Of a stretch of 64,000 nt of DNA, positions 38,914-44,865 are shown piece by piece. Origin of the DNA: Coraliomargarita sp. GTDB taxonomy: Bacteria > Verrucomicrobiota > Verrucomicrobiia > Opitutales > Coraliomargaritaceae. The stretch spans positions 2,560,001 to 2,624,000 of the forward strand of contig OZ244160.1 in NCBI GenBank assembly GCA_965216325.1. The letters are read 5' to 3'. The notes under the pieces are model-generated. The model worked only from the letters and a program-made list of their open reading frames with translations, ran no database searches and was not told the origin of the DNA. Positions within the stretch are counted from its first letter, which is position 1, and the number at the start of each line of letters is the position of its first letter. The position numbers were made by a program, and so were the translations under genes.

Positions 38914-40827
38914 GTGCGCCCGGCAGGGCGCACTTACTCGACAGTGATTATTAATGGAAATTGATGAAAGTCTGTTACTCGCCCGGCAAGGGGAAGAGTT
39001 AGCCGAAGGGCAACTGCGGCATCGCGAGGTGTTCGTGGGAAGGAAGCCTATGGCAAAGCACTGGCCTGACGAACAGGAATCGCATAAGAGGCGTTTGCGT
39101 TGGATGAGGAGGCACAGAACTTCAAAGTCCGAAACTTGCCCGGAAAGCGCAGGCGTATATGCGGCAGGCATAAGTGTGACGGTAAGTGCGCATTACCCGG
39201 GGAGGTCTCTGAACATGCTACTGGCTACCAGTGTCGCGAGGCACTGGGATGTGTTTAGAGAAGTCAGCCGAGATCATAGTAGCCTGCACAGGTCGCGGGC
39301 GAAGGATCGAACCGAAGAACGACAACAAGGACTGAGACCATGAGCGAGAGCAGGGAAGCAGAAGCTGGCGGCACCACCCGTCAGACCCGCGTGGAAGGAA
39401 CCGGACGGCATCTGGGGCGAGTCCATGCGGGCGCATCAAGCGCGCCATCGGCCTTGGAGAACCGAGTTGCTCACCAATACGACCTGATTCGACAGGTGAC
39501 CGAGCGCGGCAATATCAAAGCCGCGTGGAAGAAAGTGCGCCGCAACGGCGGCAGAGCGGGCATCGACGAGCGCGACATGGAAGCCAGCCTGGCGTATCTA
39601 AATGCGCACTGGGAGCAGATCGAATCGCAGTTGCTGACCGGGAGGTATCGTCCCCCGGCAGTGCTGCGTCTGGAGATCAAAAAGCCGGGCGGGGGCACCC
39701 GCAAGCTGGGCGTTCCCACGATCGTTGACCGTGTGCTGCAACAAGCGGCCTTGCAGATACTCAGCCCGATCTTCGACCCCCTGTTCAGCGAACACAGCTA
39801 CGGGTTCCGCCCCGGACGCAGCGCAGGACAAGCGGTCGAACAGGCGCAAAAGTATCAGCACGAAGGCAAGAACTGGGTCGTGGATATGGACTTGAAGGCC
39901 TTCTTCGACGAAGTGAACCACGACCTGCTGATGGCGCGGGTGCGCCGTCATGTGAAAGACAAAGCCATGCTCAAACTGATCCGCTCCTGGCTTAAAGCTG
40001 GAGTGATGATCGGCGGGCTGGTTCAACCCACGGAGAAAGGCACGCCTCAGGGTGGGCCGCTCTCTCCACTGCTGTCCAACATCATGTTGGACGATCTGGA
40101 TAAGGAACTGGAGAAGCGCGGCCATAGCTTCTGCCGCTACGCGGACGACTGTAACATTTACGTCGCCACGCAGCGCAGCGGCGAGCGTGTGCTCGCTTCG
40201 ATCACGAACTATTTGGAGACCAAACTGAAGCTGAAGGTCAACCACCTCAAAAGCGCGGTGGATCGTCCGAGCCGCCGGATCTTCCTCGGCTACAGCTTCA
40301 CTGGGGGCAAGCATAGCCGCATTCGCGTGCCCAAACAGACGACTCAAAAGATGAAGTCCAAGCTGCGGAAACTCTGCCGCAAAGGGCGCGGGCGCAACCT
40401 GCGCCGCTTCATCGCTGAGACGCTCAATCCAGTGCTACGCGGCTGGACGAACTACTTCCGCCTGAGTCAGACGAAAACCTTCGCCGGGGAACTGGACGAA
40501 TGGTTACGACATCGCTTGCGGTGCATCCTCTGGCGACAGTGGAAACGTCCCCACACCCGCTACAGGAAGCTGGTGCAGCTTGGGCTCAGCCCCGAATGTG
40601 CACGCAAAAGCAGCTACAACGGACGCGGGGCGTGGTTTAACAGCGGAGCCTCTCACATGAACCAAGCCCTCCCACGCAAAGCCTTCACGCAAATGAAGCT
40701 CCTATCTGTCTATGATTTGCTCGAATTGATGAGAGCCGAAATCCTTCTTCGGAACCGCCGTGATACGTGAACCGTACGTCCGGTGGTGTGAGAGCTTGGA
40801 GCGGGCAACCGCTCCCGGCTACTCGAT
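38914..40827 (+). mobile_element. Group II intron, class C (IIC), apparently full length
   Basis: 5' GTGCGCCCGGCA; domain I closing stem gcgcacttac/gtaagtgcgc; domain V GAACCGCCG...CGGTGGTGTGAGAG with CGC triad; domain VI hairpin ending CTACTCGAT; located after a terminator. Confidence 0.93.
39340..40770 (+). CDS. ltrA: Group II intron reverse transcriptase/maturase, no endonuclease domain
   Basis: RKLGVPTIVDR, SYGFRPGRS, DLKAFFD, GTPQGGPLSPLL, RYADD, FLGY and LRGWTNYF. Confidence 0.96.
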   Translation: MSESREAEAGGTTRQTRVEGTGRHLGRVHAGASSAPSALENRVAHQYDLIRQVTERGNIKAAWKKVRRNGGRAGIDERDMEASLAYLNAHWEQIESQLLTGRYRPPAVLRLEIKKPGGGTRKLGVPTIVDRVLQQAALQILSPIFDPLFSEHSYGFRPGRSAGQAVEQAQKYQHEGKNWVVDMDLKAFFDEVNHDLLMARVRRHVKDKAMLKLIRSWLKAGVMIGGLVQPTEKGTPQGGPLSPLLSNIMLDDLDKELEKRGHSFCRYADDCNIYVATQRSGERVLASITNYLETKLKLKVNHLKSAVDRPSRRIFLGYSFTGGKHSRIRVPKQTTQKMKSKLRKLCRKGRGRNLRRFIAETLNPVLRGWTNYFRLSQTKTFAGELDEWLRHRLRCILWRQWKRPHTRYRKLVQLGLSPECARKSSYNGRGAWFNSGASHMNQALPRKAFTQMKLLSVYDLLELMRAEILLRNRRDT

Positions 40828-41261: not shown

Positions 41262-41330
41262 GAACATCGAACATTTAACGTCGAACTAAGAATTCACGAT
41301 TCGACGTTGGAAGTTCGATTTTCAACGTTC
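41262..41330. repeat. Degenerate 7-bp-period inverted repeat (AACATCG/CGATGTT family)
   Basis: gaacatcgaacatttaacgtcgaa ... ttcgacgttggaagttcgattttcaacgttc. Confidence 0.65.
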
Positions 41331-42479
41331 CTTAAGGGCAGCTTTCATCTTCTCTAAGCCTTCAATTAGACGGCTTTGCGGGCAGCCAAAGTTTAGACGT
41401 ACGTGCTGGTGTCCGTCGAAGGGAATGCCATCGGAGAGGCCTACGCCGTGGTCTTCAAAGAATTTCACCGGGTTGTCCAACTCCAGCTTGCTGACGTCGA
41501 ACCAGGCTAGGTAGGTGGATTCCATCGGACGGAAGGTGATATCCGGCATTTGTTCTTTGATGAACTTGAAGAGTAACTCGTAGTTGCTTTTCAAATATGC
41601 GAGGAGCGCCTGACGCCATGGCTCACCGTGGTTGTAAGCAGCCTCGCAACCAGCATAGCCAAAGCAGTTTACCTCGGTGATGATGCCGCGGATGGTCTTC
41701 TGGAATTGTAGACGCAACTTGCTGTCTTCAATTACCGAGAATGCACAGGCTAGGCCAGGTAGGTTGTAAGTCTTGCTTGGAGCCATGAGCGTGACAGTGC
41801 GCTTCGCGATCTGCTCACTCAGTGTCGCGGTGACGATGTGCTTTGCGTCATCATCGAACACGAGGTCGCAGTGGATCTCGTCTGAGATCAGGATTAGATC
41901 GTGGCGCTCGCAGAAGTCAGCCATCTTGGTCAACTCTTCGCGCGTGTAGACACGGCCGACCGGATTGTGGGGGCTGCATAGCACGAAGACCTTGGTGTTT
42001 GGCTTTACCAACGCTTCCATCGCCTCGAAGTCGAGTGTCCAGACATCGTCTTCGTTCAGGCAAAGCGGTGCCTTGATCAGTTCGCGATTCGCGTAGTCGG
42101 GTGCGCTGAGGAAGGGCGGATAGACCGGGGTTGCGGTCATGACCGAATCACCGGGCTCAGTAAAGGCGTGGCAGCAGAGGTTGATGGCCGGCACGAGGCC
42201 AGGGAGGAAGTTGAGCCAGCTAGCCTTGGCTTCGTAGTTGTGTTGACGCTGCAGGTAATTGAGCACTGCTTCGACGGGTGCGTCGAAGGGAACGGTGTAG
42301 CCAAATACGCCGTGGTCGAGACGGGCTTGCAGCGCGTTCAGGATCTCAGGCGCAGAGGTGAAATCCATATCAGCGACCCAGAGCGGTAGGATGTCTTTGC
42401 CCTTATACTTGTCCCACTTGAGAGAGCCATAGCCCGTGCGGTCCGGGCAGCTGTTGAAATTGTAAACGGTGTCGGTCAT
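41322..42479 (-). CDS. MalY/PatB family PLP-dependent C-S lyase/aminotransferase
   Basis: LWVADMDF, CSPHNPVGRV, SDEIH, APSKTYNLPG and RLNFGCP. Confidence 0.93.
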   Translation of the reverse strand: MTDTVYNFNSCPDRTGYGSLKWDKYKGKDILPLWVADMDFTSAPEILNALQARLDHGVFGYTVPFDAPVEAVLNYLQRQHNYEAKASWLNFLPGLVPAINLCCHAFTEPGDSVMTATPVYPPFLSAPDYANRELIKAPLCLNEDDVWTLDFEAMEALVKPNTKVFVLCSPHNPVGRVYTREELTKMADFCERHDLILISDEIHCDLVFDDDAKHIVTATLSEQIAKRTVTLMAPSKTYNLPGLACAFSVIEDSKLRLQFQKTIRGIITEVNCFGYAGCEAAYNHGEPWRQALLAYLKSNYELLFKFIKEQMPDITFRPMESTYLAWFDVSKLELDNPVKFFEDHGVGLSDGIPFDGHQHVRLNFGCPQSRLIEGLEKMKAALKER

Positions 42480-42602
42480 ATGGGCGCAAAGATCAACAAG
42501 CAGTCTCGCGCCTGCAAATCATTTTGAGCTTTTGTTATTCACATCATTCGTAGATGACATGGGCGTTTATCAGGAGCACGGAAGTGCTATGATGATAAAC
42601 TT

Positions 42603-43691
42603 ATGCAAAACCCCACATCATCTACACGGACAACTAAGAACGCACTGGGCACAGTAATCAAGCTTGGCATTGACGTGCATGCGAGCACCTACGTGGTGGT
42701 CATGAAGATCGATAGCAGCGCCCCTTCACGCGCGAAGCGCATGAAGCCTGATATCTTCCTTCGATGGATTAAGCAGCTGAGCACTCAGTGCGAGCAGTTG
42801 CAAAGTTGCTACGAGGCCGGTCCTTTTGGTTACAGCCTGCACCGCAAGCTCAAGGCGATGGGCGTGAACAACCACGTAATCCGCCCGATCAACTGGGACA
42901 CTCATGGTAAGAAGGTAAAGACCGACGCGCGTGATGCGTTGCAAATGGTCTTGAGTCTGGACGGCTATCTGCGGGGCAATGACCGCAGCTTCAGTGTCGT
43001 GCGTGTGCCCAGCGAGCAAGAAGAGCGTCACCGCAGCCTAACCCGGCAGCGTGAAAGCTTCGTCAAAGAACGTGGCCGTGCGGCCAAGCGTGGTAAGAGT
43101 CTGGGACTGTATTACGATCAACCCTTACCCAGCGGCTGGTGGAAGCCGCGCAAATGGATGCAGCTACTCGAACAGCTCGACGATTTTTTGATCAGCCTGC
43201 TGGAGCCACTGCGGTTAAACTGCCTGCACTTTAGCGAGCTAATCAGCAACATCGAAGAACGTATCGAAGCGCTCGAGCCGGAACGGGTGCTGCCTAAAGG
43301 CATGGGGGTGGTCCTCTATGAACAGATCGAACGTGAGGTCTGCAACTGGAAGCGATTCAACAACCGCAAGGCGGTCAGTTCCTTTACCGGACTGTGCCCA
43401 AGCGAAGACACTAGTGCAAATCGGCGTTTCCAGGGCTCGATCAACAAACACGGCAGTCCCCGCCTGCGGCATATGCTACAAGAGTGCGCCTGGTTATTGA
43501 TCCGGTGGAATCCCGGCTACAGTGGGGTGCGTAAATGGCAGGCCAAGCTCAGCGACGAGACCACCAGTAAGGCGACCCGCAAGAAAATTGCCGTGGCCAT
43601 CGCCCGGCAGTTCGCCGTGGACTGGTGGCGCATACGCACTGGCCAATGCAGTCTCGAAGACTTCGGACTGATAAGCAGACAAAACCCATAA
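42603..43691 (+). CDS. IS110 family DEDD transposase/recombinase
   Basis: LGIDVH, CYEAG and KTDARDA (DEDD); C-terminal TGLCPSEDTSA...INKHGSPRLR with the conserved serine; IAVAIAR. Confidence 0.94.
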   Translation: MQNPTSSTRTTKNALGTVIKLGIDVHASTYVVVMKIDSSAPSRAKRMKPDIFLRWIKQLSTQCEQLQSCYEAGPFGYSLHRKLKAMGVNNHVIRPINWDTHGKKVKTDARDALQMVLSLDGYLRGNDRSFSVVRVPSEQEERHRSLTRQRESFVKERGRAAKRGKSLGLYYDQPLPSGWWKPRKWMQLLEQLDDFLISLLEPLRLNCLHFSELISNIEERIEALEPERVLPKGMGVVLYEQIEREVCNWKRFNNRKAVSSFTGLCPSEDTSANRRFQGSINKHGSPRLRHMLQECAWLLIRWNPGYSGVRKWQAKLSDETTSKATRKKIAVAIARQFAVDWWRIRTGQCSLEDFGLISRQNP

Positions 43692-43756
43692 GTCCGAACC
43701 AACGCTAAAGGCCTTCACCCTCTGATTTTAACGTTCTTTTGCAGTTTTCCTTTGTG

Positions 43757-43902
43757 CGGAGTGAGTCTGACCAAGCCCCTGTTGCCAACACAACGATTTT
43801 GTAGAATAGGCCACTTCGCCACCAAGCTTTTGAATGACCCAATGGATAGGTCATAGTGTGCTCTTCTGAGAAACACTCAGAAACACGGATAGCAGGTTAT
43901 CC
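43757..43902 (+). ncRNA. Candidate bridge/seek RNA core with two internal loops
   Basis: Two stem-internal loop-hairpin modules folded by eye; loop strands match the element's junction sequences (see findings). Confidence 0.62.
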
Positions 43903-44103
43903 CGGATCATCGAAACTCCGAGGCCATGCGCGGTGGACGCTCAAAGACGATTGCAATCAAAACAAACCACTTATCTTATGTAAAAACACTCACACGCTTC
44001 TACACTCTTGACAGAAACGAACATAGCAGGGGCTTTGCTTGCGAAGCCCGCAGTTTGTTCGATAGATCTAGCAAGCGCGTTCGGCTTGCTTTGTGCGGGC
44101 GTA

Positions 44104-44133
44104 GTGCGCACCGAGACGGTGCTGCGCTACCAA
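44104..44133 (-). repeat. GTAG-type REP-like palindrome, copy 1
   Basis: 30/30 identical to the reverse complement of 54287-54316; internal hairpin gcaccg-aga-cggtgc. Confidence 0.85.
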
Positions 44134-44187
44134 CTTTTCCGCGAATAGGCTTCTAACTTCCAACTTCTCCCTTCTAACTTCTTAAGC

Positions 44188-44865
44188 ATGAAAGCACGCA
44201 ACAAACTGGCCGAATCCACCACTCCTGACGGTGCGCCGATGGCGCTCTATGAGCATGACGGTCATTATTCGATCAGTTTTCAGGGGCAGGAACTGATGCA
44301 CTCGGATGCTTCGGCCTCTGAACTTCGTTTGGGGGAATTGGGCATTGAGCAATTGGATCCTGAGGGTGCCCCTCGCGTGTTGATTGGCGGACTCGGCTTA
44401 GGTTTTACGCTCCAGTCGACGCTGGCAGGACTTGGATCGGAGGCTCGGGTCGATGTCGCGGAGCTGGTGCCGAAGGTTGTCGAATGGAACCGTGAGTATT
44501 TACAGAGCTTGAATGGGGCACTTGTCGATGACCCGCGCGTGAATATGATTGTGGGCGACGCCGTTGCGTTGATTCGCAAAGCCCCCCCAAATACCTACGA
44601 CGCCTTGATTCTCGACGTAGACAATGGTCCGACGGGAATGGTAAAGCCCAGCAATAGCTCGCTCTATTCCGCCAAGGGACTCTATGCTGTCAAGACGGCG
44701 CTCAAGCCTGGTGGCCGCGTAGTCTTTTGGTCGGCAGGCGAAGACCAATATTTCAAAGCACGCCTCGGCCGAGTCGGCTTTCGCGTCGGTGTGGTTCCGG
44801 CCAAGGTCCACGAGCGTGCGAAACGTGCTGCTTACCGAATCTATATTGGGGATAAAAAGGGCTGA
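44188..44865 (+). CDS. Spermidine synthase-like SAM-dependent transferase
   Basis: VLIGGLGLGFT, AEL and DALILDVDNGP. Confidence 0.85.
   Translation: MKARNKLAESTTPDGAPMALYEHDGHYSISFQGQELMHSDASASELRLGELGIEQLDPEGAPRVLIGGLGLGFTLQSTLAGLGSEARVDVAELVPKVVEWNREYLQSLNGALVDDPRVNMIVGDAVALIRKAPPNTYDALILDVDNGPTGMVKPSNSSLYSAKGLYAVKTALKPGGRVVFWSAGEDQYFKARLGRVGFRVGVVPAKVHERAKRAAYRIYIGDKKG

Follow-up and report, generated by a model that had tools for sequence, protein, structure and literature searches.

A recently active, probably IS1111-type insertion sequence of Coraliomargarita with a predicted guide RNA downstream of its recombinase

We describe here an insertion sequence (IS) of Coraliomargarita sp. 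(GenBank assembly GCA_965216325.1, contig OZ244160.1), found in a stretch of 64,000 nt (positions 2,560,001 to 2,624,000, forward strand) that was analyzed as a whole and is referred to below as the window. It is a recently active insertion sequence, with nine full copies in a single-contig genome of 3.06 Mb, eight of them identical over 1478 bp. We are highly confident of its class, an IS1111-type member of the IS110 family with a guide RNA encoded downstream of the recombinase, and of its ends, core and target loop. A bridge/seek-type structure of ~150-190 nt, on the same strand and downstream of the recombinase gene, is shown by computation. This is a known kind of element (IS1111-group bridge/seek RNA), and its mechanism is not new. 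For annotation, the true ends, core and target are now fixed for a recently expanded insertion sequence. Its mostly verrucomicrobial clade, with constant donor tips, a constant AG core and at least 25 distinct predicted target sites, offers a natural re-targeting series for the study of IS1111-type bridge RNAs or the choice of orthologues.

The ends were read from the genomic copies, set in register, and from empty sites. All nine copies share their sequence from GTAG|ATGACATGG (GTAG at 42550-42553) on, next to left flanks that are unrelated upstream, and rightward the common sequence continues into GGGGCTTTGCTTGCGAAGCCC, a palindromic repeat dispersed in the genome. The ninth copy carries one single-nucleotide polymorphism (equivalent to 43884 C>A, in the donor-module inner hairpin) and has GAAG instead of GTAG at its left junction, so that the T at 42551 is target-derived. 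Empty sites read GTAGGGGC, with the layout ...(C/T)GT-AG-GGGCTT...; those in the repetitive extragenic palindrome (REP) also read nCGTA|GGGGCTT. The occupied site has the layout ...GT-AG|ATGAC...CATAGC|AG-GGGCTT.... Since AG alone is common to both junctions and the empty site, the element and its two core copies were placed as listed in Table 1. As expected of the IS110 family, whose elements lack long terminal inverted repeats and insert site-specifically, there is no target duplication beyond the AG core, and all nine copies sit at the same position of the REP. Assembled public runs of the same organism contain a unitig covering 42552-44036, starting at the left core, with a depth of 278 against 40 in the flanks in run X3 and 3488 against 353 in run X4 (~7-10x); this agrees with the ends as evidence that is not independent of the genome assembly.

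A first-pass annotation, made from the letters of the window, had drawn a different geometry, with an element at ~42575-44026, a core of 3-4 nt (CAGG/AGG) at 42571 and 44027, and GUGCUCUU (43858-65) as the guide for a left end AGGAGCAC (42572-79). CAGG does occur at both places, and GUGCUCUU and AGGAGCAC can form seven Watson-Crick pairs and one G.U pair. However, the 17-21 nt to the left of 42571 are common to all nine copies, beside their unrelated flanks, which puts this CAGG 17 nt inside the element and not at a junction; the left junction is GTAG|ATGAC, with AG as the core. Moreover, empty sites read GTAGGGGCTT, relatives in other genomes have the same left end, AG|ATGACATGG, the DNA of AGGAGCAC lies 19-26 nt inside the element, and GUGCUCUU overlaps a covarying hairpin stem in the RNA. 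The copies and empty sites refute this geometry, which we regard as exceedingly improbable. An alternative TAG core (42551/44024), also considered at first, fails on the same empty sites, which lack CAG between TAG and GGGG. The donor junction once proposed as acatagCAGGagcac gives way to ...CATAGC-AG-ATGACAT..., and the preferred target gtagaatAGGggctt to (T/C)GT-AG-GGGCTT at the REP foot, as both copies and empty sites indicate. The first-pass annotation had named different ends in other copies or empty sites as grounds against its geometry, and different ends are what the search for them returned.

Non-coding DNA of ~336 nt, close to the ~340 nt first estimated, follows the stop codon of the recombinase gene, against 49 nt of left end before its start codon. 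The first arm of the predicted RNA formed in every fold, with an outer stem (43756-69 with 43807-19) followed by an internal loop and an inner hairpin UGUUG-CCAACA-CAACG (43781-85 / 43792-96); these are the parts first proposed for module 1, and relatives show compensatory changes in the stems. The predicted right-target guide lies in the 5' strand of the loop and the left-target guide in its 3' strand, both overlapping on the AG core, which corresponds to the nomenclature of IS621, where right- and left-target guides overlap on the core (PMC11208160). The match to the top strand precedes, in the 5' to 3' direction, that to the bottom strand, as has been reported for the seekRNAs of IS1111 elements (PMC11187229). 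The 9-nt inverted repeat noticed earlier, AAGCCCCTG (43773-81) and CAGGGGCTT (44027-35), is exact, although its ninth pair, G43781-C44027, involves a base of the element and not of the target. A fourth guide had been placed at 43801-43810; its first four bases, GUAG (43801-04), belong to the left-target guide and the rest does not. UUGUAG would pair with the bottom strand, and where the flank has C, its U would face a bottom-strand G.

The RNA was further compared with that of relatives. Within the family, 12 of the 101 genomes searched at the protein level had the recombinase, with the window's own genome counted in both numbers, and a scan of species-representative genomes gave 304 relatives, from which the best 79 of 304 loci, mostly from Verrucomicrobiota, were kept. 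The closest among these best 79 is a 72% match in a Thalassobacterium sedimentorum record. Nearly all of these loci carry AG|(A/T)T(G/A)ACATGGG on the left and ...CCCATAGC|AG on the right. When 20 RNA regions were aligned (A3), the consensus contained the target arm as well as a second hairpin. The covariance model built from it was run on 75 sources, namely, the window and 74 of 89 loci of relatives, the other 15 being duplicate records or additional copies from an assembly already represented. It yielded 70 matches in 69 of the 75 sources, missing six (L038, L044, L058, L061, L062 and L068). In the resulting model alignment (A4), 91.1% of cells were paired compared to 69.9% in shuffles and at most 49.6% in slid controls, and compensatory changes were seen in 24 of 25 pairs; these pairing counts are inflated, as the alignment was fitted to the model structure, which has to be held against the reading.

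Loop columns taken from this alignment and flanks set by the conserved end motifs allowed guides and insertion sites to be compared directly. After omission of rows with a right flank shorter than 9 nt or at least three gaps in the guide, 64 unique rows gave 39 distinct combinations of a right guide with its right flank. Counted from the core, contiguous complementarity averaged 6.41 nt, against 4.29 (sd 0.2) with shuffled flanks, and none of 5000 shuffles reached as high a value; it extended to 7 nt or more in 23/39 pairs. The left guide behaved similarly (4.24 versus 3.17 over 45 distinct pairs; 0/5000), with UUAG, GGUAG, UUGAAG and CAAAG each matching their own flank. Relatedness among the loci inflates both tests. 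Apart from the window's own pair, perfect or near-perfect unrelated pairs of guide and flank include ACGCCCAUCCU with AGGATGGGCGT, ACUCCCGCCCU with AGGGCGGGAGT and CUCCCCUCCU with AGGAGGGGAG, and the guides predict 25 distinct target sites. Columns of one loop that match very different flanks are the pattern expected of a guide. This covariation in homologs, the absence of which the first-pass annotation had named as a refutation, is present. The class, the downstream guide RNA and the first target-loop guide proposed there hold.

The same data bear on two other accounts of the RNA. In the first, AAGCCCC would not be a guide and would copy the 3' arm of the palindromic REP (...GAAGCCC) by capture or by chance, as the 3' arm of the palindrome resembles the reverse complement of its 5' arm. 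We discarded this candidate, to which we give practically no credence, since the guide columns track very different flanks: in relatives the same columns match non-palindromic sequences, far better than shuffled flanks, and the left guide matches sequence outside the hairpin. In the second, the downstream RNA would be an independent selfish small-RNA module, unneeded for transposition. Precedent exists in ISPpu9, an IS110-family element in REPs, whose small RNA Ssr9 is reported to be dispensable for transposition and to occur also as solo copies (PMC12288879). Here, in contrast, all 10 RNA-model matches in the genome fall inside IS copies, nine in this element and one in a second, related element, with no solo copy, and the loop covaries with the insertion site across relatives, which makes this account highly improbable.

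The second, related element is present in the same genome as a single copy (C1:2769548-2770841), and its recombinase is 46% identical. Its tips and AG core are those of the first element, whereas its target guide CUCCCCUCCU fits the different flank found at its own site, AGGAGGGGAG, within another palindrome-like repeat (CCCCTCCTCGTCAAG|GAGGGG). Among the other relatives, L014/L064 have two left-end motifs AGATGACATGG ~200 nt apart (at 1221 and 1420 in L014), upstream of the recombinase gene; this doubled left end may reflect one insertion nested in another or a left end present on its own.

Several results weigh against this reading of the element. Contiguous complementarity of the right guide was 6 nt or less in 16/39 pairs and 2 nt or less in five of those; L016, L018, L014 and L108 are examples, and the match comprised 0-5 contiguous nt in L016/L076, L018/L071, L108 and L095. 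Such cases may represent off-target insertions, decayed copies, mis-set ends or register errors. Three folds gave folding energies not above chance relative to shuffles (z of +1.09, -1.24 and -0.38), so that the RNA structure must be argued from comparison, and a scan of 42000-44600 against Rfam gave no match at E<=1. No RNA run was among the public sequencing runs listed as containing the sequence, and in the assembled contigs of public runs, neither a circle junction nor a joint across the element was seen. The junction of a circular intermediate is predicted, by analogy with IS621, ISEc11 and ISPa11, to read ...CATAGC-AG-ATGACAT...; its 17-nt motif had no match in the assembled genome, as expected for a transient circle. 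One 2501-nt contig (record 1 of run X1) joins the left flank of the copy at 2070236-2071713 to the right flank in the window via the element; either the assembler passed through the repeat here, or IS copies had rearranged in that culture. Likewise by analogy with IS621, ISEc11 and ISPa11, we infer transcription of the RNA, its ends, its binding by the recombinase, the circle and a need for the second module.

Table 1. Features of the insertion sequence and its insertion site (positions in the window)
Feature	Position	Strand	Basis
AG core, left copy (target-derived)	42552..42553	+	junction GTAG|ATGAC in 8/9 copies, GAAG|ATGAC in 1/9
Insertion sequence proper	42554..44027	+	1474 bp; 1476 bp with one core
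Tip of the left end, ATGAC, external to the sub-terminal inverted repeat; proposed right-donor (RD) site	42554..42558	+	complementary to RNA 43850-54
Left sub-terminal inverted repeat (ATG..CGTTT..TCAGGAG), holds CAGG at 42571	42559..42576	+	position-equivalent to ATGGG...GTCAGG of relatives
DEDD plus Ser recombinase/transposase, 362 aa	42603..43691	+	Pfam and NCBIfam matches, invariant residues, ISCro4 alignment
Target-binding arm of the bridge/seek RNA (outer stem, internal loop, inner hairpin)	43756..43819	+	every fold; compensatory stem changes in relatives
Predicted right-target guide AAGCCCCU	43773..43780	+	exact reverse complement of core + right flank AGGGGCTT (44028-35); covaries with right flank
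Predicted left-target guide UUGUAG	43799..43804	+	identical to top strand of left flank + core, (T/C)GTAG; covaries with left flank
Proposed right-donor guide GUCAU	43850..43854	+	same columns as GUCAUCU of L103; pairing better than shuffles
Donor-module inner hairpin, UGUG/CACG + UUCUGAG-AAACA-CUCAGAA	43857..43887	+	folding and covariation
Proposed left-donor guide AUAGCAG	43889..43895	+	identical to right-end tip + core (44023-29)
Right sub-terminal inverted repeat (CTCTTGACAGAAACG..CAT), holds TTGACA at 44008-13	44005..44022	+	CTTGAC kept at this right-end distance in relatives
AG core, right copy	44028..44029	+	genomic copies in register and empty sites
REP-like hairpin GGGCTTTGCTTGCGAAGCCC, right half of the target	44030..44049	+	empty sites and dispersed palindromic repeats in the genome

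The target, (T/C)GT-AG-GGGCTT, lies at the 5' foot of a hairpin resembling a REP. A 14-nt REP pattern with up to two mismatches had 179 matches in the genome, the REP-like ones nearly all following (C/T)GTA. Unoccupied genomic sites comprise GTAGGGGCTT (34 sites), GTAGGGGCGT (37), GTAGGGGCGC (55), GTAGGGCCTT (14) and GTAGGGGCTC (8), and all nine insertions occupy its GGGCTT variant. For an insertion indifferent to positions +5/+6, the probability of finding 9/9 in the CTT class would be ~(43/157)^9, or ~1e-5, assuming independent events. The spread of the element has thus been confined to one sequence variant of the REP, which fits an RNA-guided choice of sites.

In the window, the IS separates two divergently oriented genes and is upstream of each: a class I/II aminotransferase gene (41322-42479, minus strand), whose start is 72 nt away, and a spermidine-synthase-like gene (44188-44865, plus strand) at a distance of 158 nt. 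Its insertion may affect the promoters of both. Another copy, at 1552474-1553951, sits at the end of an array of five ~290-bp tandem units (1554243-1555406), each containing the sequence of the left flank together with the REP target in a long-loop variant.

The intact recombinase with DEDD and Ser residues recognized in the first pass is confirmed by its open reading frame (ORF), its domains and its invariant residues. Members of the IS110 family combine an N-terminal RuvC-like DEDD domain (PF01548) with a C-terminal domain (PF02371) that carries the conserved Ser, and both are present here. The protein matched Transposase_20 (PF02371, E=4.9e-14) and DEDD_Tnp_IS110 (PF01548, 29.2 bits at a cut-off of 29) in Pfam, and the NCBIfam entry NF033542, 'IS110 family RNA-guided transposase', with 137.8 bits, just below the 140-bit cut-off. 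An alignment with eight relatives (44-71% identity) shows no variation at D24, E71, D108, D111 and S271. S271 stands within GLCPSEDTSA, a GL-P----S(A/G) motif, with SA here and SG in the relatives at the 45-48% level. The single sequence found no match among solved structures, and ISCro4 and IS621 were reached by profile search alone: the profile of the relatives' alignment matched ISCro4 (9t56, E=5e-6), with the alignment covering the GIDV, CxEA, KTDAxDA and GLxPxxxxSG motifs, and IS621 (8wt6, E=0.0026), by score alone. Transposases of the IS1111 group are described as having ~330-350 aa and a GL-P----S(t)G motif, occasionally with TA (PMC11187229); the protein here, at 362 aa, slightly exceeds this range.

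The second module of the RNA raises the question of how the element recognizes its own ends. On balance, we lean toward this module carrying donor guides, AUAGCAG and GUCAU. The first of these falls in GGAUAGCAGG, the most conserved non-coding block, present in 19 of the 20 sequences of A3, with its last 9 nt, GAUAGCAGG, in all 20. GATAGCAGG is invariant in 20/20 A3 sequences, the full block GGATAGCAGG is found in 19/20, and L018 has AGATAGCAGG instead. Downstream of the gene, most loci have exactly two occurrences of ATAGCAGG, one in the RNA and the other at the right end, and AUAGCAG itself consists of the core, the right-end tip AGC and two bases of the inverted repeat; the identity of AUAGCAGG at 43889-96 with 44023-30, seen in the first pass, is exact. 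Immediately 5' of this block is a hairpin with strong covariation, whose stem (helix 6) is 94.5% paired, with compensatory change in 7/8 pairs, which also upholds the inner hairpin UUCUGAG-AAACA-CUCAGAA first proposed for module 2.

GUCAU is most likely the right-donor guide, a reading from sequence comparison that we hold with moderate confidence. In L103, the same columns read GUCAUCU, a perfect 7-nt complement of AG+ATGAC, and relatives at the 45-48% level have AUCAACU; the window reads GUCAU-AG (43850-56), just 5' of the donor hairpin. The columns of 43850-54 also pair with the left-end tip in relatives. Among 22 distinct combinations of the right-donor guide (RDG) block (b1 to b5) and the left-end tip (LE1 to LE5), b3-LE3 was paired in 22/22 (17 C-G, 5 U-A) and b4-LE2 in 22/22, followed by b1-LE5 (17/22), b2-LE4 (16/22 plus one wobble) and b5-LE1 (13/22, including A-T with TTGAC/TTAAC ends and C-G with a GTGAC end). 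On average, 4.09 of 5 positions formed Watson-Crick pairs, compared to 3.54 in shuffles, with 0/5000 as high.

Other observations speak against donor guides in this module. GUCAU-AG of the window does not pair with the core, as CU would be complementary and AG is the core itself; LE1 is paired in 13/22 combinations only, and both core bases are paired in 5/22. Donor ends scarcely vary in the family, and the covariation of donor guides amounts to few events among related sequences. In addition, an 82-nt short seekRNA with the target matches alone is reported to have sufficed for movement of ISEc11, an IS1111-type element (PMC11187229). This last result favors an account in which the first arm (~43756-43819) alone guides, the protein reads the ends via the sub-terminal inverted repeats, and the second module is precursor, scaffold or processing sequence, with neither AUAGCAG nor GUCAU acting as a donor guide. 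It would also agree with GUCAU stopping short of the core in the window, with the imperfect pairing of RDG columns in many relatives and with the poorly conserved outer stem of module 2: the stem GGAUAG/UUAUCC first proposed there was 56.1% paired, against 53.6% in shuffles (15/500 as high), and is possible in the sub-lineage of this element. Against this account stand the conservation of GGAUAGCAGG, its equality with right-end tip plus core and its place directly 3' of the covarying hairpin, as well as the RDG columns, which track changes of the left end (G to A at LE3; A to T or G at LE1); furthermore, donor-binding nucleotides are reported in IS1111 bridge RNAs, often within a multiloop (PMC11208160). 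We consider it unlikely that the first arm acts alone.

The structure around the proposed donor guides is not settled by folding, as thermodynamic folding of the donor module was unstable across three folds. An alternative hairpin, AUGACC/GGUCAU (43834-39 / 43849-54), appeared in two folds, and most relatives are without its 5' arm. In the relatives at the 45-48% level, a long-range stem (alignment columns 88-93 with 199-204) encloses the donor module, which fits the multiloop reported for IS1111 bridge RNAs (PMC11208160).

With donor guides in the second module, reading by the RNA would be limited to the short tips that the sub-terminal inverted repeats enclose at a circle junction. The window copy has ATG..CGTTT..TCA(G/A)GAG at both ends, weak and gapped by an indel, and, as a further point against our overall reading of the element, this inverted repeat taken by itself is not above chance (580/1000 shuffles in local alignment; 93/200 shuffles in a second test). 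In relatives, ATGGG...GTCA(G/A)G is inverted at both ends at the same offsets, a few of these repeats being individually significant, and leaves tips of 5 nt on the left and 3 nt on the right; repeats of 7-17 bp in such a sub-terminal position characterize the IS1111 group. The proposed donor guides span the tips outside the repeats plus two adjoining repeat bases (AT) on the right, a coverage that agrees with this layout, because the repeats are reported to flank the programmable donor sequence (PMC11208160). The two bases 3' of the right-donor guide are CU/CA, complementary to the core, AG, identical to the core as here, or AA, GA and GG, which hints that pairing of this guide with the core is dispensable or replaced by another contact. 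A hybrid recognition of donors in this clade, with the RNA reading 3-5 nt of the tips plus the AG core and the protein reading the sub-terminal repeats, is a tentative possibility, to which we assign distinctly less than an even chance. If true, it would constitute a real mechanistic difference from IS621 and could explain why short seekRNAs suffice in some IS1111 elements. A promoter scan of 42480-44100 found no sigma-70-type promoter; it is speculation that the junction could form one from TTGACA (44008-13), a 17-nt spacer and TGACAT (3/6 of the -10 consensus).

About 2 kb upstream of the IS, the window has an ORF (39340-40770, plus strand) for a protein of 476 aa, in which RVT_1 and group II intron maturase domains are present. 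Sequence near 40320 inside this ORF has at least 12 genomic occurrences with identical flanks, which suggests that the ORF belongs to a multi-copy group II intron.

Among known systems, the element resembles ISPpu9/ISPpu10 of Pseudomonas putida in its multiple copies in REPs and in an RNA gene downstream of the transposase (PMC12288879). It differs from ISPpu9, for which a dispensable Ssr9 and solo copies are described (PMC12288879), in that no solo copies occur here and the loop tracks the target.

IS621 and ISCro4 (Durrant et al. 2024, PMC11208160; PDB 8wt6, 9t56) share with it a DEDD plus Ser recombinase, left guides that equal the top strand, right guides that complement it, a shared dinucleotide core and an RNA of two modules for target and donor, the donor module being a proposal here. 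Their proteins are related to the one described here at the profile level only (E=0.0026 and 5e-6). In contrast to IS621/ISCro4, the RNA lies here at the right end and not the left, the order of guides is reversed, the core is AG instead of CT, the donor module is probably part of a multiloop, and the proposed right-donor guide has no pairing with the core.

In layout, the element resembles the IS1111 group. A long non-coding region downstream of tnp is described for ISEc11, ISPa11 and ISKpn4 (Siddiquee et al. 2024, PMC11187229), and, as in IS1111 seekRNAs, the top-strand match precedes the bottom-strand match, the two overlapping in the target (PMC11187229). The GL-P----S(G/A) motif and the short tips outside sub-terminal inverted repeats are also features of this group (PMC11187229). 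ISPa11 likewise inserts in a REP, which in its case begins GTAGG (PMC13604230), and close relatives naturally re-aimed at new sites are found as for ISEc11 and ISXne4. The element departs from the IS1111 group in its 362-aa recombinase (compared to 330-350 aa), in an A and not a G after the Ser, in its weak, gapped inverted repeat, in relatives mostly from Verrucomicrobiota and in being known here from sequence alone.

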